Both the position numbers and the translations under genes were made by a program. A DNA stretch of 32,858 bases. Source: a virus (Duplodnaviria; Caudoviricetes). The stretch's first letter is position 1. Every line of letters begins with the position of its first letter. Of the stretch, positions 3,575 through 32,401 are shown in pieces. The notes under the pieces were generated by a model. It searched no databases, was not told where the DNA came from, and saw only the letters and a list, made by a program, of their open reading frames with translations. The DNA is taken from the IMG/VR virus record IMGVR_UViG_3300027769_000089, positions 1-32,858 of that record. The stretch is one strand, 5' to 3'.

Positions 3575-3601
3575 TAAATATATACTTAGATATATCGTTC
3601 C
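3575..3601 (-). promoter_or_regulatory. Putative phage late promoter GGAACG-N13-TATATTTA
   Basis: Same two boxes and same 13-nt spacer as at 12187-12213; lies in the gap upstream of scaffold/capsid. Confidence 0.7.
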
Positions 3602-6115: not shown

Positions 6116-6142
6116 TAAATATATTTTATTGCGTTTTGGTCA
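6116..6142 (-). promoter_or_regulatory. Possible late promoter upstream of portal
   Basis: TATATTTA box in the intergenic gap; the upstream box at the 13-nt spacing is degenerate (TGACCA). Confidence 0.45.
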
Positions 6143-9246: not shown

Positions 9247-12168
9247 TTATGCGAATGTTACCATGGTTGATAAAGGTGCGTAAGCAGCACCACTACCATA
9301 AAGTGTGTTAGTACCACCGAATATCGCTGCCAATTCAGCCGTTGTTATTGTTTGTGGTGGTAAATTACCTGACATGCCACCTTGTGCAACCGTCTTAAAG
9401 CCACCACCTTGTAAACAATGTAGTTTACTTGTATATAAACCTTGTGTTGAAAGCGTTGCATTTGACCAGTTTGGTGAACAGTTAAGCACATCATAGGTTA
9501 CCAAAGTAGGTGTTTTACTTAATCTACCCCATGTACCAGTTGTTGAGTTTGTGCTTTCAAACTCAACTATCATCATAAGCATTCCATCTGGTAAATAGAA
9601 ACCAGCATTACCATCAGCATCATACATTTGTGTATGACCAATTGTTGATAAACCACCACCAGCTGGTATTGTTATCACAGCTGAATAACCTATCAATGTT
9701 TCTGGTAATGGTAAATATGTTGACTGAGCTGCGTTTGCAGCTGAATAACTTATAGTACCACCACCGTTATTTGTGTAACTATTTACAGATGGGTATCCAA
9801 ATTGAAAATAGTTGTTCGCTACGTATGTACCATAGTAAGTATTCAAGTCCGTAAATGAATTTGTTGTACGACATTGATAGAACATTATTCTTAACTTGGT
9901 TTCAGCTGTTACAGTTGCGTTTTTGTATGGTAATATCGTATTAATTTTATTACCACCAATTCCACCTAAAAATGGGAAATAACCACATTGTAAAGTACCG
10001 TGGGTTGTATCCAATTGTGCTAAAGTTACCTGTGAACCAGGTGATAAATTATCGTTTAAGAACATTCTATTATTTTGAACAGGTACGCGTCCAAACAAGT
10101 TCTTTTTAACATTAATTAAGGATATTGTACCTGGTGTTGTTACCATTGAACCAGTTAATCTATCACCGAATAAGTCATTAAAAGCTACGCTAGGTGCAGC
10201 CAATGGGCCAAATGCCACGCTTGTAAATCCAGCACCTTGGGTGTAGATAGATGCATCCATAAACAAGTTACCAAACATCGGTCTTGGTGTTACATATACT
10301 TGAACACCATCAATGCTATATCTTACATTTTGTGTATCATAGTTGATGCTATATCTTGTTGATGATGTTGGTGCAGCACTATGTGTATAAACCACCGTAC
10401 CACTTTCAATAACAACTATGTTTGTTGACCCAGAATAAACACCGATACCATAGTCAATGAATGTTGGGTCTGTTGTTACAGCACTACCAGATGACATACC
10501 AATTAAAGCAAGGCCAGTGGTTGATGAAGGTACAGCCGATACATAAGCACCAGGGAAACCTTGTTGTGCATAAAAACCTGCATTCCAACTATCACCACCG
10601 CTTGATTTGGTAAATTCGTTACCAGATATTTTATCAACGTTTGCTGTTTCAACAGTTGTGATATTACCAAAACCATCTATACCACTTGTACCAGATGCAC
10701 CGCTAGAACCACTTGTACCGTAAGCAATTCCACCAGTACCTGTATTATATTCAACAGCCATCCATTCAACTGTATCAGAACCAGTATTATCTGTTTGGAA
10801 TGTAAAACCTGTTACGCTTTTGCTAACAATTCTTAAATAATCTTGGTTAACGTTTGCATAACTCTCCATTGTAACCGCATAATTGGTTGATGGCATAGGT
10901 GCACCGAATGAAACTGTGTATGATGTGTTTGTTGTTGTTGCTTGTTGACCAGCACGCGTCTGAACAAAACCAGCGGCGTAACTTGTACCACTTGAACCAC
11001 TAATACCGCTTGTACCTGTTAAACCGCTTGAACCACTAGAACCTGTTATACCGCTGCTTCCAGAACTACCTGTTGCACCACTAGTACCGTTCACACCACT
11101 TGTACCAGCAATACCAACTGACTGAACAATTACTAATATATCATGTCCATTGTTGAATGAATGCCCACCACTAACATATGTAACACCAAAGGTAACATAA
11201 GCAGTTGTGGTTGCTGAAACACTATTTACTGTCCAAATTTGATAGTTTTCACTATCATTTCTGTCTTGTATAATAAGACGTGACCCAATACCTGTTCCAG
11301 CTAATATTACTTCAATGTCATTGCCATCTTGTGTAAGATGGGATAAGTAAACTTCTGTTGAACCTGTTTGTGTTGCGTTATTCCATTCCAAGTTACCGTT
11401 ATTAACTGGGGGTGCTTGACTAGTTGTATGTGCGTTATATCTGTAATATGTTGCGCTAAGACCATTCTGTCCACTGCTTCCAGATGATGCTGATGAACCA
11501 GATGAAGCTGAAGAACCAGACGAACCACTAACACCACTGGTGCCGTTTTGTCCGCTAGAACCGCTTGAACCATTTACACCACTTGTTCCGTTAACACCAG
11601 ACGTACCATTTGCACCAGCTGTCCCAGAAGATGCTGATGAACCACTAGAACCGTTTTCACCAGAGGAACCACTAGTACCGTTAGAGCCACTAGTACCACT
11701 CGAACCAAAAAATGCACCATCAACACCACTAGTACCAGACTGACCACTCGAACCGTTCTGACCAGAGGAACCAGCTGTCGCGTTTCTACCAGACGTACCA
11801 CTTGAACCAGCATATGGGTTTGTAATCACAGTGGTTTGTGCAATATCGTTCTCAATAACTATATTTGCTGGGCCTTGAACGAACACCTGTGAGCTTTCAA
11901 CAACCGCGTTATTTATCTTTAAATCATAGTCATAATAACCACCACCATATTGAAGGAATATAGTACCACCAGTCAGGTTCTCCATTGTTGACCCAGTTAC
12001 TGTGGTAAATTGACATTTGAACCAAGTATCAGTTATTGTTTGAACTATTGGGTCAACTGTCTTGGGTATGTTATAAGTGATATTTGTTAATGTTAATTCA
12101 ACAGTATCACCTGTGGTAACCTGGTGATAAAAAACTACTTCATTAACTGCGAACTGTTCAATCTTCAT
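9247..12168 (-). CDS. Multidomain Gly-X-Y repeat fibre protein, 973 aa
   Basis: Three GSS/GTS tracts separate globular beta-rich domains, including a 'TVSF-x-x-PM-x-x-x-NY-x-V...TGF...W-x-A' fibre module. Confidence 0.82.
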   Translation of the reverse strand: MKIEQFAVNEVVFYHQVTTGDTVELTLTNITYNIPKTVDPIVQTITDTWFKCQFTTVTGSTMENLTGGTIFLQYGGGYYDYDLKINNAVVESSQVFVQGPANIVIENDIAQTTVITNPYAGSSGTSGRNATAGSSGQNGSSGQSGTSGVDGAFFGSSGTSGSNGTSGSSGENGSSGSSASSGTAGANGTSGVNGTSGVNGSSGSSGQNGTSGVSGSSGSSASSGSSASSGSSGQNGLSATYYRYNAHTTSQAPPVNNGNLEWNNATQTGSTEVYLSHLTQDGNDIEVILAGTGIGSRLIIQDRNDSENYQIWTVNSVSATTTAYVTFGVTYVSGGHSFNNGHDILVIVQSVGIAGTSGVNGTSGATGSSGSSGITGSSGSSGLTGTSGISGSSGTSYAAGFVQTRAGQQATTTNTSYTVSFGAPMPSTNYAVTMESYANVNQDYLRIVSKSVTGFTFQTDNTGSDTVEWMAVEYNTGTGGIAYGTSGSSGASGTSGIDGFGNITTVETANVDKISGNEFTKSSGGDSWNAGFYAQQGFPGAYVSAVPSSTTGLALIGMSSGSAVTTDPTFIDYGIGVYSGSTNIVVIESGTVVYTHSAAPTSSTRYSINYDTQNVRYSIDGVQVYVTPRPMFGNLFMDASIYTQGAGFTSVAFGPLAAPSVAFNDLFGDRLTGSMVTTPGTISLINVKKNLFGRVPVQNNRMFLNDNLSPGSQVTLAQLDTTHGTLQCGYFPFLGGIGGNKINTILPYKNATVTAETKLRIMFYQCRTTNSFTDLNTYYGTYVANNYFQFGYPSVNSYTNNGGGTISYSAANAAQSTYLPLPETLIGYSAVITIPAGGGLSTIGHTQMYDADGNAGFYLPDGMLMMIVEFESTNSTTGTWGRLSKTPTLVTYDVLNCSPNWSNATLSTQGLYTSKLHCLQGGGFKTVAQGGMSGNLPPQTITTAELAAIFGGTNTLYGSGAAYAPLSTMVTFA
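10207..10647 (-). repeat. Duplicated 147-codon domain, copy 1
   Basis: Matches 8139-8579 at a constant offset of 2068 bp. Confidence 0.92.
10981..11115 (-). repeat. Gly-X-Y coding repeat tract
   Basis: GIAGTSGVNG...GSSGTS. Confidence 0.9.
11461..11808 (-). repeat. Gly-X-Y coding repeat tract
   Basis: GSSGTSG...GSSGQNG, about 116 codons, with occasional Ala for Gly and one register break (GAFFG). Confidence 0.9.
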
Positions 12169-12186
12169 CTTAATTTGTTATGTTAA

Positions 12187-12213
12187 TAAATATAATAACA
12201 TCAAATACGTTCC
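12187..12213 (-). promoter_or_regulatory. Putative phage late promoter GGAACG-N13-TATATTTA
   Basis: Directly upstream of the fibre operon; same geometry as 3575-3601. Confidence 0.7.
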
Positions 12214-12221
12214 TTATCAAT

Positions 12222-12326
12222 AAAAAAGGCCTAGAGAGAATGGGAGTACAAACTTCTAGGCCTATCTATGGAAACACGCAGTGGAACATGGCAAATGTAG
12301 TTTAATCTAAAAAATAACCACTGCTG
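12222..12326 (-). ncRNA. Candidate small RNA B (about 105 nt)
   Basis: Upstream CTTG-N19-TATATTTA, a 5' stem GCAGTGG/CCACTGC, and a 3' terminator AGGCCTAGA/TCTAGGCCT plus U-run; contains complements of early-gene starts. Confidence 0.55.
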
Positions 12327-12329
12327 TAT

Positions 12330-12360
12330 TAAATATATAAAAACAAAACGTATATTCAAG
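12330..12360 (-). promoter_or_regulatory. Putative promoter for candidate sRNA B
   Basis: CTTG-N19-TATATTTA, a variant of the Bacteroidota -33/-7 consensus TTTG-N19-21-TAnnTTTG. Confidence 0.5.
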
Positions 12361-12379
12361 TATAATTAAAGTTTATTAC

Positions 12380-12450
12380 AAAAAAAAACCACCCTATGAG
12401 GTAAGGTGGTAATTTCTATGTTCTCATACTATGGATATACGTTTCGAACA
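12380..12450 (-). ncRNA. Candidate small RNA A (about 70 nt)
   Basis: Terminator ACCACCUUA-CCUCA-UAGGGUGGU plus U-run, with a G-U pair only on the minus strand and no minus-strand gene upstream. Possible promoter TTTG-N20-TACTATTA at 12485-12454. Confidence 0.45.
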
Positions 12451-12512
12451 TTATAATAGTAGGAACTTCACAAGGTTATTCCAAACTATTTTCAAATTTT
12501 TTTTAAAAATAC

Positions 12513-12543
12513 TTGCTTTAGATGTTCCTTTTGCTTATCTTTG
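12513..12543 (+). promoter_or_regulatory. Bacteroidota housekeeping-type promoter for the early operon
   Basis: TTG-N20-TATCTTTG upstream of ATG 12570. Confidence 0.7.
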
Positions 12544-12569
12544 TGATATATATATTTAAAAACATTATT

Positions 12570-12782
12570 ATGGAAACAAAAAAATGTTGCAGATGCAACC
12601 AACAAAAGCCACTTGAAATGTTTGTGGCTAACAACAAATCAGCGGATGGCCGCAAAGGTTATTGCAAACAATGCCACGCATCTAGGGTCCAGCAATGGCG
12701 CGATAACAACCTAAGTTTGAACAGGGCAGTCCAACGAGCACATTATTATAAACGTAAAGCAAACGCATTACAAGAAAACTAA
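12570..12782 (+). CDS. Small zinc-finger protein (start corrected to 12570)
   Basis: K-x-C-x-x-C...K-x-L-x-x-F...DG...YCK-x-C; resembles the N-terminal Zn module of phage endonuclease VII/HNH proteins without the nuclease domain. Confidence 0.8.
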   Translation: METKKCCRCNQQKPLEMFVANNKSADGRKGYCKQCHASRVQQWRDNNLSLNRAVQRAHYYKRKANALQEN

Positions 12783-12794
12783 AAACTACATACT

Positions 12795-13469
12795 ATGGAA
12801 ACAAAAACAAGCTTTTATCTACACAACGACATGTTGAACGTGTTGGATAAATTAACAGACGAACAAGCTGGAAAGCTATTCAAAGCAATTAGAAATTATC
12901 AATATGGCATCGAAGATGAGTTGGACCTATTGCTTGAAATTACATTTATGCCATTTAAAAATCAATTTGATAGAGACAACCTCAAATATCAAAGTGTTGT
13001 TGAACGCAATAAGGAAAATGGTAAAAAAGGTGGTAGACCAAAAAAAACCCAGGATAACCCAAAAAACCCAAGTGGTTTTCTGAATAACCCAGAGAAACCC
13101 AAAGAAACCCTAAAAGAGAAAGAGAAAGAGAAAGATAATAATAAGGGTAATAATACTGTTAGTGAAACTGATATTGATGGAATTAATTTCTTTAAATCTA
13201 TTAAAGATGAAGAAGAGTTTAATGATGAATTAGGTTGGGATGCTTATCCAGAGGTTTATATACCAAATGTATTTAAAATTGTTTATAACAAACTTGGTTG
13301 TACTAAATCAGATATAAATGATATAAAAAATATGGATGGATACACCAACGGTTCAAATGAAGATAAGTATATTTGTGTATCACAATACATCAATTTAAAT
13401 TATGGTGATAATATAATACCATTTGACATTGCTCAAGATAAATTAAATAAAATTGAATATAATTTCTAA
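12795..13469 (+). CDS. Putative replication initiator (DUF6291-like N-terminus)
   Basis: 'SF-x-L...LTDEQAG-x-LFKAI-x-x-Y', 'NGKKGGRP', then a low-complexity linker carrying DNA repeats. Confidence 0.75.
   Translation: METKTSFYLHNDMLNVLDKLTDEQAGKLFKAIRNYQYGIEDELDLLLEITFMPFKNQFDRDNLKYQSVVERNKENGKKGGRPKKTQDNPKNPSGFLNNPEKPKETLKEKEKEKDNNKGNNTVSETDIDGINFFKSIKDEEEFNDELGWDAYPEVYIPNVFKIVYNKLGCTKSDINDIKNMDGYTNGSNEDKYICVSQYINLNYGDNIIPFDIAQDKLNKIEYNF
13046..13134 (+). repeat. Putative origin: six AACCC iteron cores plus AAAGAG repeats
   Basis: AACCC at 13046, 13056, 13065, 13086, 13096 and 13106 (about 10-bp phase), followed by a purine tract. Confidence 0.6.
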
Positions 13470-13482
13470 ATAAATTAATACC

Positions 13483-13911
13483 ATGGCAAATACATTAACA
13501 CCTCAACAGCAGTTCAAATTAAAAGAACTAAACAACAGACTTTACACAGGTATCAATGGTACCACTAGGGAAGAATTAATTGAAAACTTTGATACATTCC
13601 TTCAACAGTATGAAAAACACATCCAATTTTATGAAGAATTAAACTTTTTCAAGAATAGCGTCAAAGAACGCTTCTACATGAAGCAAATGGAGCTAAGTGT
13701 GGGTAAGACACCAAAGAACCAATTAGAAGCCATTAAAGGGTGGTTAGAACAAGGGAAAACGATAAACTGGATACAAGCAGCTGAATTTTTTGGATGTGGT
13801 AGGCTTGCACCTGTAATTTATGTCTTACGACATAAGCACCAAATGAACATCAAAGATGTGGGTACAAGCCGTTGGGCTGAATATAAATTCATAGATGATG
13901 CGAACGCATAG
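13483..13911 (+). CDS. Protein with C-terminal winged-helix domain (HTH_39-like)
   Basis: 'Q-x-x-x-I-x-x-x-L-x-x-G-x-TI...A...FG-x-x-RLA-x-x-I-x-x-LR' motif. Confidence 0.72.
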   Translation: MANTLTPQQQFKLKELNNRLYTGINGTTREELIENFDTFLQQYEKHIQFYEELNFFKNSVKERFYMKQMELSVGKTPKNQLEAIKGWLEQGKTINWIQAAEFFGCGRLAPVIYVLRHKHQMNIKDVGTSRWAEYKFIDDANA

Positions 13912-13962
13912 CGATGGCAATGCTATAAAGGAAAAGAAATAAAAGAAAGGAAAAGAAAAGAA

Positions 13963-14547
13963 ATGGAAACAAAAGAAAAAATTAGTACCCTATTGGATGA
14001 ATTAATATCATTACTTGACCAAGGTAATGACATTATTGAAGAACTACGTAATCTTGGTCATGACTTTAATAGAAAGGATGGTAAATATGACTTTAAACTT
14101 GACCCAAAGAATATACATGGTCAACTCATAGAAGTTAGATATTCAAAACATATCACATCTGATGATATTGAAAGATACATAGCATATGAAATTAAATCAG
14201 AGAACCCAAACTCATGGATAAAAAGTGGTAACATATACATCGAATTTGAGCAATTTAAAAATGGTGAGTGGGTTGATAGTGGTATATCAATAACAGAAGC
14301 TGATATGTGGGTCCACGTCTTAAAGGATGAGAATGGAAATATATTACATCCAATAGAATTATCAACTAGTTGGTTGAAGCATAGAATAGATGAATTAAAT
14401 TGCCCAATCACAACTAAACCAAGAACAAGTGATGGTACACCAACCAAAGGTTATTTGGTTCCATTAAAAGACCTGTATCACACCCCTAGGGACTACGCAA
14501 AATTCAAACAAAAGATAAACGCTAAAAAAATATTAAAAAACAAATGA
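13963..14547 (+). CDS. Putative PD-(D/E)XK nuclease-fold protein
   Basis: 'YD...EIKSE...SGNIYIE...SGI-x-x-T-x-AD-x-W' pattern common in phage nuclease-like proteins. Confidence 0.62.
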   Translation: METKEKISTLLDELISLLDQGNDIIEELRNLGHDFNRKDGKYDFKLDPKNIHGQLIEVRYSKHITSDDIERYIAYEIKSENPNSWIKSGNIYIEFEQFKNGEWVDSGISITEADMWVHVLKDENGNILHPIELSTSWLKHRIDELNCPITTKPRTSDGTPTKGYLVPLKDLYHTPRDYAKFKQKINAKKILKNK

Positions 14548-14816
14548 AGACAATAACAACCCAATGTGGTGAAGTGGTACTAGAGTTACCCAACGTCTTA
14601 AACCTAAGACATAACATCATCTGTAAAAAATTTGATGGTACAATAGTGTTACTGCATAAACCAACCAACAGACTAAACCTGGTGTTTATGCCAGACGTGA
14701 GCGACTGGACCATCCAATCTTGTTGCTTCGCGGTTGAGAGAATTGTTGAGCCGTTGCCAATAGCATTGACCATTTCAAACCACATCCCAGCGATAGATGA
14801 AAATTTTTCAAAATAA
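14544..14816 (+). CDS. Hypothetical protein
   Basis: ATGA overlap with the upstream gene; fills the operon. Confidence 0.65.
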   Translation: MKTITTQCGEVVLELPNVLNLRHNIICKKFDGTIVLLHKPTNRLNLVFMPDVSDWTIQSCCFAVERIVEPLPIALTISNHIPAIDENFSK

Positions 14817-14817
14817 A

Positions 14818-14849
14818 TTTGGTTGGTAAAAAAATAAGAATTACATTTG
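14818..14849 (+). promoter_or_regulatory. Bacteroidota-type promoter, near-leaderless, for HNH gene
   Basis: TTTG-N20-TACATTTG-N4-ATG. Confidence 0.75.
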
Positions 14850-14853
14850 TGGT

Positions 14854-15378
14854 ATGGAAAAAATATGGAAAGCTATCCCTTCTTATGAAGGGTTATATGA
14901 AGTAAGCAATTATGGTGAAGTTAAAAGCCTTGGTAATAACGCAACACGTAAAGAAAAAATATTAAAAACATCTGATAATGGTAATGGTTATTTAATACTT
15001 TCTTTAAATAAAAATAGTAAGCGTAAACTATTTCAAGTACATCAATTAGTTGCAATAGCTTTTTTAGGTCATCAACCAAATGGTTATGAAACAGTTGTTA
15101 ACCATATTGATAATAATCCGTTAAATAATTATGTTGGTAATTTAGAATTAGTATCGCAAAGATATAATTTATCTTGTCATAAAAAAGATGTTGGCGTTAG
15201 CTTCCAAACTAATAGAAACAAATTTAGAACTATGATACGCATTGGTTATAACCAGGTTCATTTAGGTTTGTTTACCAATAAACAAGATGCCCTTAACATA
15301 TATCAAAAAGCATTAGATAATATGCATCTATACAATGGTGATAATAAAGAATTTAGAAACACTTTAAATAAATTATAA
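14854..15378 (+). CDS. NUMOD4-HNH endonuclease with AP2-like C-terminus
   Basis: 'W-x-x-IP-x-YEG-x-YEVSN-x-G-x-VKS' (NUMOD4), 'VHQLVA-x-AF...VNHID-x-N-x-x-NN-x-x-x-NL' (HNH_3) and 'HLG-x-F...A'. Confidence 0.9.
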   Translation: MEKIWKAIPSYEGLYEVSNYGEVKSLGNNATRKEKILKTSDNGNGYLILSLNKNSKRKLFQVHQLVAIAFLGHQPNGYETVVNHIDNNPLNNYVGNLELVSQRYNLSCHKKDVGVSFQTNRNKFRTMIRIGYNQVHLGLFTNKQDALNIYQKALDNMHLYNGDNKEFRNTLNKL

Positions 15379-15395
15379 GACAAAAGAAAAATACT

Positions 15396-15830
15396 ATGGA
15401 AAAAACAATTTCGAAAATGGAAGCAATGGCCGATGTTATCGCCCACTTCCCAAAGTATCGTGAAGCTGCGGCTATCTACGGTCATTCATTATTCACCTTG
15501 GTGGATGCATTTCAAATTCAAGCCGCTTATTCAAATCTAACTGAATACGATGCTGACAATGTTTGTATGATACTTGCTGCTAATGGTATTAGCCAAGCAA
15601 TGAACAAGCATGACATGTTCAAAATTAATTTGGATGGTGATAAAGTTCAATATGAAGGCTTTGACTGCTGGAACAACAGCTGTGGTATGTTCACAGAAAG
15701 GGAAGCATTGGCTTGCGCAATTATCATGGTCCACGGCAACTTGGGTATGATGCAATTAACCATGACTGATGGTATGGTTATCACCAACTTCAAATACACT
15801 GATAACAAATTCGTTAAACTTTTAGACTAA
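15396..15830 (+). CDS. Hypothetical protein
   Basis: 144-aa ORF with A-rich leader in the early operon. Confidence 0.8.
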   Translation: MEKTISKMEAMADVIAHFPKYREAAAIYGHSLFTLVDAFQIQAAYSNLTEYDADNVCMILAANGISQAMNKHDMFKINLDGDKVQYEGFDCWNNSCGMFTEREALACAIIMVHGNLGMMQLTMTDGMVITNFKYTDNKFVKLLD

Positions 15831-15835
15831 TAAAC

Positions 15836-16033
15836 ATGTCAGAACACATCATTTTTACAAATATCGCTTCAATAGACAATGTCTATATGACAGACGATAG
15901 CACAAACGTTCACATCGTTTGCAATGACTTTACAGGAAGAAACCATGTGTTGGTGCTTCATCCAGCCCACGTATTCAAAATCAAACAATTGATGATGGAT
16001 GCTATTGTCGGACCACAAGAAAACGCTGAGTAA
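15836..16033 (+). CDS. Hypothetical protein
   Basis: 65-aa ORF tightly packed between neighbours. Confidence 0.7.
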   Translation: MSEHIIFTNIASIDNVYMTDDSTNVHIVCNDFTGRNHVLVLHPAHVFKIKQLMMDAIVGPQENAE

Positions 16034-16140
16034 TGGCTGTTAAGAAAAACTATTCGGTGGTTAGAAAAGCACTTGGTTTAAAGCAACGTGCCACCCCTAC
16101 TCAGAAGAAAAGTAAACCAACCAAAAGAAAGAAGTGGTAA
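16033..16140 (+). CDS. 35-aa basic peptide (not in ORF track)
   Basis: MAVKKNYSVVRKALGLKQRATPTQKKSKPTKRKKW; TAATG-coupled, and stops 1 nt before the next ATG. Confidence 0.65.
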   Translation: MAVKKNYSVVRKALGLKQRATPTQKKSKPTKRKKW

Positions 16141-16141
16141 T

Positions 16142-16489
16142 ATGGGAAGAAACCGACCAGCCTTCACAGGGCACACAGAACTAAGAAAGACCTTTCAACG
16201 CAAAGGTGTAATGACCAAGAATGAAAAGGGTATTGAGGTTAGAGCGTGGTTGATATTCACCCAGCTCGAACACAAAGAAGGGACAGGCTACATTTACTCT
16301 ATTGACTACGATGGCCACTTATTTTTTCAAGTTTTCAAAGAACGTTACATTGAGAATGATGATGGTGCCACAATCGTAACATACCCAAACGATGATGCGT
16401 TCAGAGAGAATGAATGGCAGTGGGCCTGGACCACCAGGACACTAGAAGAAGCAAAGGAAGTATTGGAAACCTTTGAATGTGTTTATTAA
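16142..16489 (+). CDS. Hypothetical protein (start corrected to 16142)
   Basis: The ATG start removes the overlap with the 35-aa ORF; ends just before the terminator. Confidence 0.75.
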   Translation: MGRNRPAFTGHTELRKTFQRKGVMTKNEKGIEVRAWLIFTQLEHKEGTGYIYSIDYDGHLFFQVFKERYIENDDGATIVTYPNDDAFRENEWQWAWTTRTLEEAKEVLETFECVY

Positions 16490-16490
16490 T

Positions 16491-16518
16491 AAGAAAGGGG
16501 CTCTAGGCCCCTTTTTTT
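16491..16518. terminator. Bidirectional terminator at the strand convergence point
   Basis: AAGAAAGGGGC-TCTAG-GCCCCTTTTTTT. Confidence 0.85.
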
Positions 16519-16648
16519 ATATCCCTAGATGCTCATCATACATCAAAGGGGTTTCTTCTTCTTTAAGTTCTTTTTTGGCCCTAAGAATAATATAGGCGAC
16601 AAACAAACAAAGTTCAACACCAATAGTAATAAGTACTCCACCTATCAT
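16517..16648 (-). CDS. 43-aa single-pass membrane protein (not in ORF track)
   Basis: MIGGVLITIGVELCLFVAYIILRAKKELKEEETPLMYDEHLGI; ATGA-coupled to the protease gene and ends in the terminator. Confidence 0.65.
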   Translation of the reverse strand: MIGGVLITIGVELCLFVAYIILRAKKELKEEETPLMYDEHLGI

Positions 16649-21262: not shown

Positions 21263-21289
21263 TAAATATAATTTTATCTTTTTTGTTTA
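21263..21289 (-). promoter_or_regulatory. Putative late promoter TAAACA-N13-TATATTTA
   Basis: Same spacing as the other copies; upstream of tape measure. Confidence 0.55.
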
Positions 21290-28857: not shown

Positions 28858-28884
28858 TAAATATAATTTTTGTTATTCCGTTTT
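28858..28884 (-). promoter_or_regulatory. Putative late promoter AAAACG-N13-TATATTTA
   Basis: Same boxes and spacer as the other copies; between TerL and the tail operon. Confidence 0.65.
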
Positions 28885-30121: not shown

Positions 30122-30700
30122 TTATTTGCTAATTTTTATACCATAACTCACACACCCATCCATTCCTTTCATGGATATTTCCTGGTTGTATTCTCGGCAA
30201 AATTCATCCACAGCTTTCTTCACACCAAAGTTGTAACTGTTGTTTGTTTTGTCCATGTTATGTTCGTAATCGTGGCCCATGATATAACCACCGTTCTTAA
30301 TTTTGTTATACGCGTTTATAAGGTCTTTTAAGACACCTTCATAGCTGTGGTCAGCATCAATGTATATCATGTCAAATGTATCGTTGGAAAAGCTACCCAA
30401 AATGTCTGTGGTAAGTCTTATGATGCTTGCTGGGTTTTTAAATTTGTTTACATTTTCAACTGTGATGTTATACAGTTCCTCACCTGTGTAATATTGTCTT
30501 ACACCGTTCTTATGGTTTCCGTTTACATCACCGCTATAAATATGCGTACCAGACCAGCTATCAATCAGTATTAATTCTTTTGGTTGACATATCTCATCTA
30601 TCTTAAGGCTAAATTCACCTTTGAACACACCCAATTCTGCTATCATACCACCTTTGGGTATTGCAGCAATCATCTCATCTCTGGTATCAAAAATCTCCAT
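30122..30700 (-). CDS. Class I SAM-dependent methyltransferase (Methyltransf_24-like; start corrected to 30700)
   Basis: 'ELGVFKG', 'D-x-IYIDADHSY' and 'GG-x-I-x-GHDY'; no DNA-MTase DPPY/NPPY or PC motif seen. Confidence 0.88.
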   Translation of the reverse strand: MEIFDTRDEMIAAIPKGGMIAELGVFKGEFSLKIDEICQPKELILIDSWSGTHIYSGDVNGNHKNGVRQYYTGEELYNITVENVNKFKNPASIIRLTTDILGSFSNDTFDMIYIDADHSYEGVLKDLINAYNKIKNGGYIMGHDYEHNMDKTNNSYNFGVKKAVDEFCREYNQEISMKGMDGCVSYGIKISK

Positions 30701-30701
30701 C

Positions 30702-31421
30702 TTACTTATGTTGTATCCATGCTTGGTCAGCACCGTTATCTTCACCGTTGAATGCGAATGCACCACCTCTGTATTTTGTGTTTAATGGTAAACCAGATAC
30801 AAATTTATCCGCGTAATTGGTGTACACAACATGGTTTGCTGCCGCCATATCAACTGTGGTCTTTGTTACATTACCTTTTTCAAGGATGTTTGCAATCGCT
30901 TCAGTTACTTCCAACATCATCTCTCTGTTGCCACCCATTACACCACAGTTCAATACCTTTTTATCCACGTATTCTGTTGGGTTCAAGCCAAGCATTCTGT
31001 ATCTGTCCATCATCCACCAATTTTCTTTGTTTGTGCATTCTTCATCACCGATATAAAGCGTTTCTTTCTTCATTGACTTGAATGGGTTCTTTAGGATAAC
31101 AACATCGCTTATATCCAAACAATAAACGTTTTTAATTTCTGGCATTTCATTTAATAAATTATGATATAAATTCCATCTGTAATCTACCATATTTAATTTA
31201 ATGTCATCGACCCTAACGAATTTAATTTTATCTGTTGAATATTGTTCAATAAATTCTGGTGAACAGTGGTCATGCAAAATCACACAATTCAATTTATTTT
31301 TGGTTACAGAATTGTAAAATTCTTTCATGATGTTAAAATCATTCTGAGGCCATGAGCCGCTTCTTTGTGGGTCAACCCCAGTTGTAAAGTAAGTTGTAAA
31401 AATGTAGTTCATATTATTCAA
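30702..31421 (-). CDS. Putative GT-A fold glycosyltransferase
   Basis: 'LDISDV-x-x-x-x-NPF', 'LNCG-x-x-GG', 'DM-x-x-x-N' and terminal 'HK'. Confidence 0.6.
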   Translation of the reverse strand: MNNMNYIFTTYFTTGVDPQRSGSWPQNDFNIMKEFYNSVTKNKLNCVILHDHCSPEFIEQYSTDKIKFVRVDDIKLNMVDYRWNLYHNLLNEMPEIKNVYCLDISDVVILKNPFKSMKKETLYIGDEECTNKENWWMMDRYRMLGLNPTEYVDKKVLNCGVMGGNREMMLEVTEAIANILEKGNVTKTTVDMAAANHVVYTNYADKFVSGLPLNTKYRGGAFAFNGEDNGADQAWIQHK

Positions 31422-31929
31422 TTATTTCTGTGTCTTGAATATCCTGTGGCTTTGCTTTTATCGCGTTAGGTAATTCAAATTTTATTGTTACGTCCGTGAC
31501 GCTTATTGTTCCATCTAAGCTTGTTACAATTTTACTCATTTCTTTGAGAACGTCAAGTGCAAGTCGTTTCTCATCATCGTAAATTGCCTCTGAATACATT
31601 AATTCAAGTCGCATCAATATCGCGTTTGCATCCACGATGGCTTTATGCTTTAGGTTTTCCCTAAAGACTGTAATCATATCTTGTAGCTTTGGGTTACCAA
31701 GTAGTTCCCTGGCTTTTCTTTTTATCTGGGCCCTATCATCCCCCAATTCATACAATTCGCTTACCACGGTCATTGCATCTTCACCAGCTGCCAAACGCAT
31801 GCAAAAATCAATTGAGTGTGGTGATAACCTGTAACTGTCAAACTTTTCTTTGATGTATTGTGGCAACCTTTCTATGGTGATAAACTCATGCACCTTGGTT
31901 GGTTGTTTATTACTTCCTTTTCTTGCCAT
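31414..31929 (-). CDS. terS: Terminase small subunit
   Basis: 'L-S...F...A-x-x-LL-x-NP-x-L...I...AL-x-x-L' helical pattern like Terminase_2; upstream of TerL. Confidence 0.65.
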   Translation of the reverse strand: MARKGSNKQPTKVHEFITIERLPQYIKEKFDSYRLSPHSIDFCMRLAAGEDAMTVVSELYELGDDRAQIKRKARELLGNPKLQDMITVFRENLKHKAIVDANAILMRLELMYSEAIYDDEKRLALDVLKEMSKIVTSLDGTISVTDVTIKFELPNAIKAKPQDIQDTEIIE

Positions 31930-32401
31930 CTAATTCTTTCAATGCTTTTTGGTATGCATCTAATGCATCTTGTTTATTTTTGAAGCGACCTAGGTTAATA
32001 TTTTTACCTTTTATCATTATCGCAGCTTTCCATTTAGACCTACTTGCTTCCCAGGTTATACCAACATCAGTTTTATGGCATGAGGTATTATACCTTTGAG
32101 ATACTAATTGTAAATTATCAACACAATTATTTAAATTATTATTATCAATATGATTTACAATAATATTCATACCATCTGGTATATGGTTTAAAAAAGCCAT
32201 CGCTACTAATTGGTGTATCTTGTAATTTTTTCGTTTACCGTATTTAACCAAACTAACTTTTAAATAACCACCTTTACATGGGTGTTGTTTTAATAACGCT
32301 TCGTTATTAGTATGGTTGTAATTTAAACTTTTAACATTACCCATGTTTGATACCTGGTAATCACCTTCGTAACCAGGTATGTCTTTGTATATTTCTTCCA
32401 T
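31910..32401 (-). CDS. NUMOD4-HNH endonuclease with AP2-like C-terminus
   Basis: 'DIPGYEG-x-YQVSN-x-G', 'IHQLVA-x-AF' and 'VNHID...NL'; paralogue of 14854-15378. Confidence 0.9.
   Translation of the reverse strand: MEEIYKDIPGYEGDYQVSNMGNVKSLNYNHTNNEALLKQHPCKGGYLKVSLVKYGKRKNYKIHQLVAMAFLNHIPDGMNIIVNHIDNNNLNNCVDNLQLVSQRYNTSCHKTDVGITWEASRSKWKAAIMIKGKNINLGRFKNKQDALDAYQKALKELDGKKRK

Follow-up and report, generated by a model that had tools for sequence, protein, structure and literature searches.

A conserved tandem element in a Bacteroidota-type phage: probable antisense RNAs to early start codons of the same phage

Described systems closest to the element

The plasmid antisense RNAs CopA, Inc RNA and ColE2 RNAI limit the synthesis of a replication initiator; such copy-number RNAs are encoded across their target in cis and are perfectly complementary to it over a long stretch. 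The P4 CI RNA, which is grouped with C4, is a phage small RNA that uses short loop seeds on the phage's own lytic-control genes. How phages of Bacteroidota time or restrain their early genes is little known, though fresh water and guts abound in such phages.

Shine-Dalgarno sites are missing from Bacteroidota mRNAs, which make use of adenines at −3 and −6 (PMC6847099, PMC7366714). The small RNAs GibS and FopS of Bacteroides thetaiotaomicron repress by pairing at start regions, and FopS blocks translation, with compensatory rescue for FopS-10 (PMC7366714, PMC11697453). We compared these systems with a real, conserved and uncatalogued phage element made up of two tandem units, A and B. GibS and FopS resemble the predicted A and B RNAs as short terminated RNAs with single-stranded seeds at or beside start codons, GibS having two seeds; start-codon complementarity is likewise present in the seeds of A and B. 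The promoters of GibS and FopS are of the TAnnTTTG type, to which the sites of the phage units show one or two mismatches. In contrast, GibS and FopS are host RNAs that act on metabolic genes through unstructured 5' seeds, whereas A and B are phage-encoded, hold their seeds in loops and are predicted to act on the phage's own early genes. Rfam gave no match at the gathering score in the window (the whole stretch of DNA analyzed, 32,858 nucleotides), and the eight weak matches at E≤10 within 12100–12650 included none to the GibS/FopS family.

C4 of P1 and P7 is also a phage RNA with short loop seeds that pairs in trans near the starts of its own lytic-control genes (PMC5320573, PMC8198154); pairing of short loop seeds in trans with the phage's own genes is predicted for A and B. 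C4, however, has three stems, is cut by RNase P from the strand that also encodes its target operon, and under a C1 repressor blocks icd/ant, whereas A and B are divergent, tandem and self-terminated, lie on the strand opposite the early operon and would target an initiator and a winged-helix gene. Neither the three-stem C4 fold nor the Rfam C4 model was matched. An antirepressor or CI-like gene was not found: the icd/ant family was absent among 32 scanned window proteins, and integrase, partition and CI-like families were absent among these and two more, many of the proteins being without any match. P22 sar, lambda OOP and aQ (PMC12197685) resemble A and B in repressing a developmental gene of the same phage and differ from them in being cis-encoded with a single target.

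Set against the plasmid RNAs, A and B are separated from the initiator by one gene, at a distance of 350–550 nt on its upstream side, and carry seeds of 9–13 nt; both end upstream of the early promoter (12512–12543) and do not overlap the initiator leader. Common to both is the initiator start as target, which for A is a predicted one, of rank 1 or 2 in four loci. The element is thus like GibS and FopS in its chemistry, like C4 as a loop-seed phage RNA and like the plasmid RNAs in its initiator target, and membership of all three fails because there is no Rfam match, no co-transcription with the target and no overlap. The first-pass annotation knew of no described system of this form; GibS/FopS (start-codon pairing) and C4 (a phage antisense repressor) are close precedents. 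We found no description of the element in the literature; motif terms gave 0 matches in the searched part of the supplements of PMC10690425, which could list the motif without a function.

The phage genome and the layout of A and B

The window holds a complete, circular phage genome of 32.7 kb with a 147-nt terminal repeat. The sequence points to a Bacteroidota-type phage with a Bacteroidota host, since Nonlabens phages are nearest by portal (P12024S/L, the nearest cultured records, at 28% identity) and the early promoter has a perfect TAnnTTTG box. Most of the sequencing runs that contain the region are freshwater metagenomes. The portal, terminase, tape-measure and tail-fibre-like genes all lie on the minus strand, nine small plus-strand genes (12570–16489) form the early block, and A and B occupy the gap between these divergent operons. 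The early-operon promoter (12512–12543, plus strand; CTTG, 20 nt, TATCTTTG) is of the consensus Bacteroidota primary-sigma type, and its −7 box is perfect in all four loci compared. Methyltransferase and glycosyltransferase genes (30122–31412) lie between the terminase subunit genes here and in the relative G001, and are missing there in G002. Two NUMOD4-HNH endonuclease genes, 14854–15378 and 31910–32401, are related, lie on opposite strands and are 70% alike over 253 nt.

Three early genes on the plus strand are the main predicted targets: a zinc-finger-like first gene (start 12570; matched at 12569–12578), the gene in the initiator slot (12795–13469; matched by A and B at 12789–12803) and a 142-aa winged-helix gene (13483–13911; matched by B at 13482–13491). 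The starts of a 194-aa gene (13963–13971) and of a 144-aa gene (15391–15402; A 10 nt, B 9 nt) are secondary. What had been called the initiator gene encodes a DUF6291 protein with a weak primosomal PHROG match, and O-like or DnaD-like initiators fill the same slot in relatives. As for the HTH gene, the window protein has no Pfam match, its predicted fold has a pLDDT of 68, and Foldseek gave weak winged-helix matches with nothing at E≤0.001, but the homolog in L185 passes the HTH_39 cut-off and PF14090 is listed for 8 of 18 homologs.

B is the second of the conserved tandem pair. A lies upstream of it on the same minus strand and likewise has a promoter-like site, a terminator and a stem-loop at its 5' end. 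Both would be transcribed leftward and end at their terminators. Predicted RNA A (12381–12449) is about 70 nt long and folds with a z of −3.4, a value reached by 2 of 200 shuffles. Its promoter-like site (12454–12485; TTTG, 20 nt, TACTATTA), a block conserved in three lineages, stands back to back with the early promoter. The A seed (12425–12437) is antisense to the initiator start, by 11 nt to the window allele and 13 nt to the L183 allele, and the A terminator (12380–12410) bears at its tip an invariant UUA-CCUCA-UAG hairpin (12404–12394).

Predicted RNA B (12220–12325) is about 105 nt long, with homologs in G001 and L185; its 5' end is placed by the G-5 rule for transcript starts (PMC6847099). 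The first-pass annotation had described a promoter-like CTTG-N19-TATATTTA, a 7-bp stem and a terminator with a U-run. The promoter-like site was located at 12330–12360 on the minus strand (CTTG, 19 nt, TATATTTA; one mismatch to TAnnTTTG), and both hairpins appear in the minimum free energy fold (z −4.4, 0 of 200 shuffles as good). The 5' stem (12324–12318 with 12284–12278; feature 12278–12324) closes a 33-nt loop and has a different sequence in each lineage. Its loop starts with a conserved UUUUUAG (12307–12313) and holds seed 1 (12287–12296), antisense to the winged-helix start, whose UUUGCCA core is kept in all three lineages. Seed 2 (12266–12276), antisense to the initiator and other early ATGGAAA starts, is present in the window and L185 and absent from the B of G001. 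The intrinsic-terminator-like hairpin (12263–12227; 12220–12263 together with its U tract) has a 9-bp stem and is missed by a simple terminator scan, its loop exceeding 8 nt. An invariant UACUCCCAU (12240–12248) is part of the terminator loop in two lineages, the window and L185, whereas G001 has it in the loop of a middle hairpin.

Protein searches led to G001 (L002/L059) and L185, diverged relatives that carry the entire region, and to the close strains L182 and L183; comparisons were made among three independent lineages (window, G001 and L185). The order is the same in all: late gene, B, A, early promoter, zinc-finger gene, initiator and winged-helix gene, with one additional gene ahead of the initiator in G001. 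Across lineages the units are 55–67% identical. Each of the six has a more stable fold than its shuffles (z from −2.7 to −4.4), has U tracts after its hairpins on the minus strand and shows a promoter-like site with one or two mismatches to TAnnTTTG. Stem sequences differ between lineages and pairing is retained; RNAalifold on A found double changes in 5 of 20 pairs, a count without statistical weight for three sequences. The conserved sequences are held by loops: UCCAUA in the A 5' loop, UUACCUCAUAG at the A terminator tip, UUUUUAG and UUUGCCA in the B 5' loop, and UACUCCCAU.

Between L182 and L183 there were no changes in A and B, compared with eight in the adjacent gene and seven in promoters. 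A and B of L183 are letter for letter those of the window, yet the initiator is different. Three families fill the slot: DUF6291 (window, 12795–13469; also G001), O-like (L183, 4240–4998) and DnaD-like (L185, 1432–2148). The swap in L183 starts directly after the gene's first five bases. Run X7 represents a mosaic strain over 11700–13614, with 58 changes in 11700–12348 and none in 12152–12348, and, like G001, carries about 200 additional nt ahead of the initiator. In L184 and L186 the winged-helix gene starts MKT, and the genes for the zinc-finger protein and the initiator are oriented away from it; neither unit was found in these fragments, and the fragments G002, G003 and G004 do not show the motif.

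Pattern searches for more homologs gave at least 119 viral loci, none passing the layout filter; in further searches (22 and 4 viral loci) the layout appeared only in the two known lineages, and 17 loci from genomes included none with it. Portal alignment against genome contigs revealed no prophage, and BLASTN of the region against phage records returned short chance matches only. Models R1 and R2, built from three sequences each with imperfect alignments, gave no match beyond their training loci in 100 sources (953 kb), and R1 matched 0 of 141 Bacteroidota genomes in a search that had no positive control.

Complementarity to early start codons

The first-pass annotation had reported that the unpaired parts of B are reverse complements of early start regions, and these matches proved exact: 12266–12276 equals 12793–12803 at the initiator start (11 nt), the same seed shares 10 nt with the 12570 start and 9 nt with the 13963 start, and 12287–12296 equals 13482–13491 (10 nt). 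We found two further matches, at the 15396 start (9 nt) and the 14854 start (8 nt). With 9 early and 26 late starts defined from the window's ORF calls, B covers the AUG by at least 9 nt at 5 of 9 early starts versus 0 of 26 late starts (6 of 9 early at ≥8 nt), and none of 1000 dinucleotide shuffles equalled the observed count. One B seed supplies four of the five matches because the early starts share ATGGAAA, and part of the match signal is this shared ATGGAAA/ATGGCAAA start consensus. When all early starts were counted, G001 (1/10; 188 of 1000 shuffles) and L185 (1/8; 119 of 1000) were not significant alone.

In an unrelated Bacteroidota genome (400 kb of 3.2 Mb, one stand-in genome), B matched 2 of 348 starts at ≥9 nt and six at ≥8 nt; at 75 distant phage loci, 21 of 1002 and 0 of 56 starts on the two strands were matched at ≥9 nt, about 2%. 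These rates make the complementarity a specific trait of the early block in this phage. The earlier suggestion that B shuts off host mRNAs through common AUGGAA/AUGGCA starts finds no backing in these counts. Across 140 loci, 22 start-to-intergenic matches of at least 11 nt stood against 9 in one shuffle, with known-locus repeats and A-rich matches included.

We ranked all ungapped helices of at least 7 bp that a unit can form with either strand of the sequence it comes from (6 kb for L185, 5 kb for L183), opening costs included. For A, the initiator start ranked 1 of 4810 in the window, 2 of 4922 in G001, 1 of 1003 in L185 and 1 of 748 in L183, and the match was reached by 4, 11, 82 and 0 of 10000 shuffles, respectively. 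B's conserved partner is the winged-helix start, with weaker ranks than A's for the initiator: 3 of 5455, 59 of 9271, 7 of 1245 and 1 of 795, reached by 24, 213, 519 and 21 of 10000 shuffles. The two helices ahead of it in the window are terminator-stem matches. The early-operon terminator (16495–16520) has a 9-nt arm in common with the B terminator and forms B's top-scoring helix; this pairing is not in the top list of the B of G001.

The best-conserved anti-initiator seed sits in A rather than B. The B linker seed ranked 35 (window) and 43 (L185) against the initiator, and the B of G001 lacks an anti-initiator seed (rank 3480). G001 B and its own winged-helix start are predicted to form a 9+9-bp duplex; in L185 B, no base lies opposite the A of the AUG. 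A 12-nt match of G001 B surrounds an ATG inside the zinc-finger gene, close to where that gene ends (C1 16306–16317), and is longer than its contiguous winged-helix match. All of these seeds are short and AU-rich, at −6 to −12 kcal/mol.

Self-specificity was partial. For three of the four initiators, the unit from the same genome gives the best match; that of G001 is matched over 12 nt by its own A and over at most 8 nt by the five other units. The window's initiator is better matched by the A of L185 (12 nt, versus 11 nt to its own initiator), and the winged-helix starts of G001 and L185 are better matched by a foreign B than by their own (10 vs 8 and 9 vs 8). The seeds therefore follow a start consensus common to the whole family, with a degree of tuning by lineage. 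Crossover or cassette exchange at the start codon could partly keep the upstream match passively, without selection.

Conserved layout, folding, exposed seeds and complementarity characterize the element. The comparative tests (shuffles, ranks and cross matches) support, at the level of sequence, the earlier proposal of a multi-seed RNA acting in trans on the phage's own early starts, and A and B are probably an antisense RNA pair directed against them.

Alternative readings and the proposed mode of action

A different assignment of function takes A and B as real RNAs whose main job is done by the invariant C-rich loops, the CCUCA hairpin and UACUCCCAU, whose partner would be a protein or RNA of the host or the mRNA of another phage; the matches to early starts would then be secondary. 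The CCUCA tip of A and UACUCCCAU of B are indeed the most invariant sequences in all three lineages; both are unpaired at a tip, and one moves between loops. Neither, however, has a start-codon target in the window or G001 phage records, even with G-U pairs allowed, and searches of Bacteroidota genomes with CTATGAGGTAA and ATGGGAGTAYAA brought up no consistent gene, though the phage's own host may hold a specific target. In samples of 61 Bacteroidota genomes, CTATGAGGTAA occurred in 31, with 50 matches versus 88 for the reversed control and no gene common to 30 loci except one near-identical pair; ATGGGAGTAYAA occurred in 21, and 0 of 30 loci lay at an ORF start. We consider this reading unlikely. 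The CCCAU of the terminator loop, listed in the first-pass annotation as exposed, is part of the invariant UACUCCCAU, but the start-codon target implied for it was not found.

The UUA-CCUCA-UAG tip of A resembles the 16S anti-Shine-Dalgarno end. Two specific targets for the invariant loops were rejected: 16S rRNA (of two 16S genes, neither has TGAGGTAA and one has GGGAGTA) and rpsU leaders (neither motif in any of three; one 6-nt overlap).

The hairpins might instead be only terminators that shield the late operon from leftward transcription, or a terminated leader like that of lambda pR', with the AUG matches as relics or AT-rich by-products. Both terminators face the first late gene, and promoter-like sites are common in this AT-rich region. 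Against this, that gene, the tail-fibre-like gene (12168–9247, minus strand), has its own TATATTTA promoter-like site (12187–12194) downstream of the B terminator, as in all three lineages; 5' stem-loops and conserved loop motifs are needless for insulators; and the initiator start is A's rank 1 or 2 in 4 of 4 loci. This reading is, in our judgment, quite improbable.

A further reading is action of the motifs on the plus strand or as DNA, as micro-ORFs, as an RNA decoy drawing off some start-region-binding protein, or as operator copies. An ATG-AGG-TAA is invariant in the three lineages, and MANVV, MANL... and LANV begin alike; but the micro-ORFs are conserved in neither length nor sequence (the MGV ORF has 21, 3 and 25 codons), no common plus-strand promoter lies upstream, and it is the minus strand that carries the U tracts and has the better fold in four of six units, with a slightly worse one in two, all of which makes this reading very improbable. 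Broad shut-off of host translation by B through common AUGGAA/AUGGCA starts is scarcely credible: such starts occur in Bacteroidota and seeds of 6–10 nt can suffice (PMC7366714), but B reached 2 of 348 starts at ≥9 nt and six at ≥8 nt in the one stand-in genome versus 5 of 9 early starts of its own phage.

If A and B are an antisense pair, they would pair with start codons of the phage's own early mRNA, B blocking translation of the winged-helix gene and both together that of the replication initiator. The seeds would cover the AUG and the −3/−6 adenines or the first codons; since Bacteroidota mRNAs lack Shine-Dalgarno sites, this may stop initiation on the early polycistron, as FopS does on its targets. 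The host-like promoter of A, backing onto the early promoter, suggests dose-dependent feedback on the initiator: A would accumulate with genome copy number and so cap initiator synthesis. B, from its octamer promoter, may add shut-off later in infection, timing being the most tentative step of the scheme.

B may be late because TATATTTA precedes structural genes: 5 of 7 minus-strand copies in the window lie within 40 nt of a structural-gene ATG, and the total of 9 copies was equalled in 2 of 100 shuffles. Late timing is nonetheless put forward with caution, because the B promoters of the relatives have only inexact forms of this octamer and the early leader (12551) contains it as well. Among B promoters it is exact only in the window; those of the relatives keep TTG and the spacing, with one or two mismatches in the octamer. 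Of 22 runs, one was RNA (X20, share 0.07), and its single contig covers 11790–12043 in the late gene, outside the two units; contigs cannot show small RNAs.

A wider role as a protein-free control and immunity module is conceivable, though we think it doubtful: the seeds would hold replication down for a carrier state and silence the initiator alleles of competing kin, with the invariant loops aimed at further phages or host genes. Silencing of kin would fit the finding that the one A/B pair of L183 matches its own O-like allele over 13 nt (A) and the DUF6291 allele of the window over 11 nt (B). Were the antisense reading true, two short RNAs with modular seeds would address the initiator slot whichever of three families fills it, and antisense control of initiators would extend from cis-overlapping plasmid RNAs to short-seed control in trans in a phage. 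The element could then also serve as a compact scaffold for gene silencing in Bacteroidota.

Minus-strand copies of TATATTTA lie at 1329–1336, 3575–3582, 6116–6123, 12187–12194, 21263–21270 and 28858–28865. In the window, G001 and G002 alike, the octamer precedes structural genes at corresponding positions; it is a candidate phage late-promoter box, for which a sigma-70 region-4 protein (803–1174) is a candidate activator.
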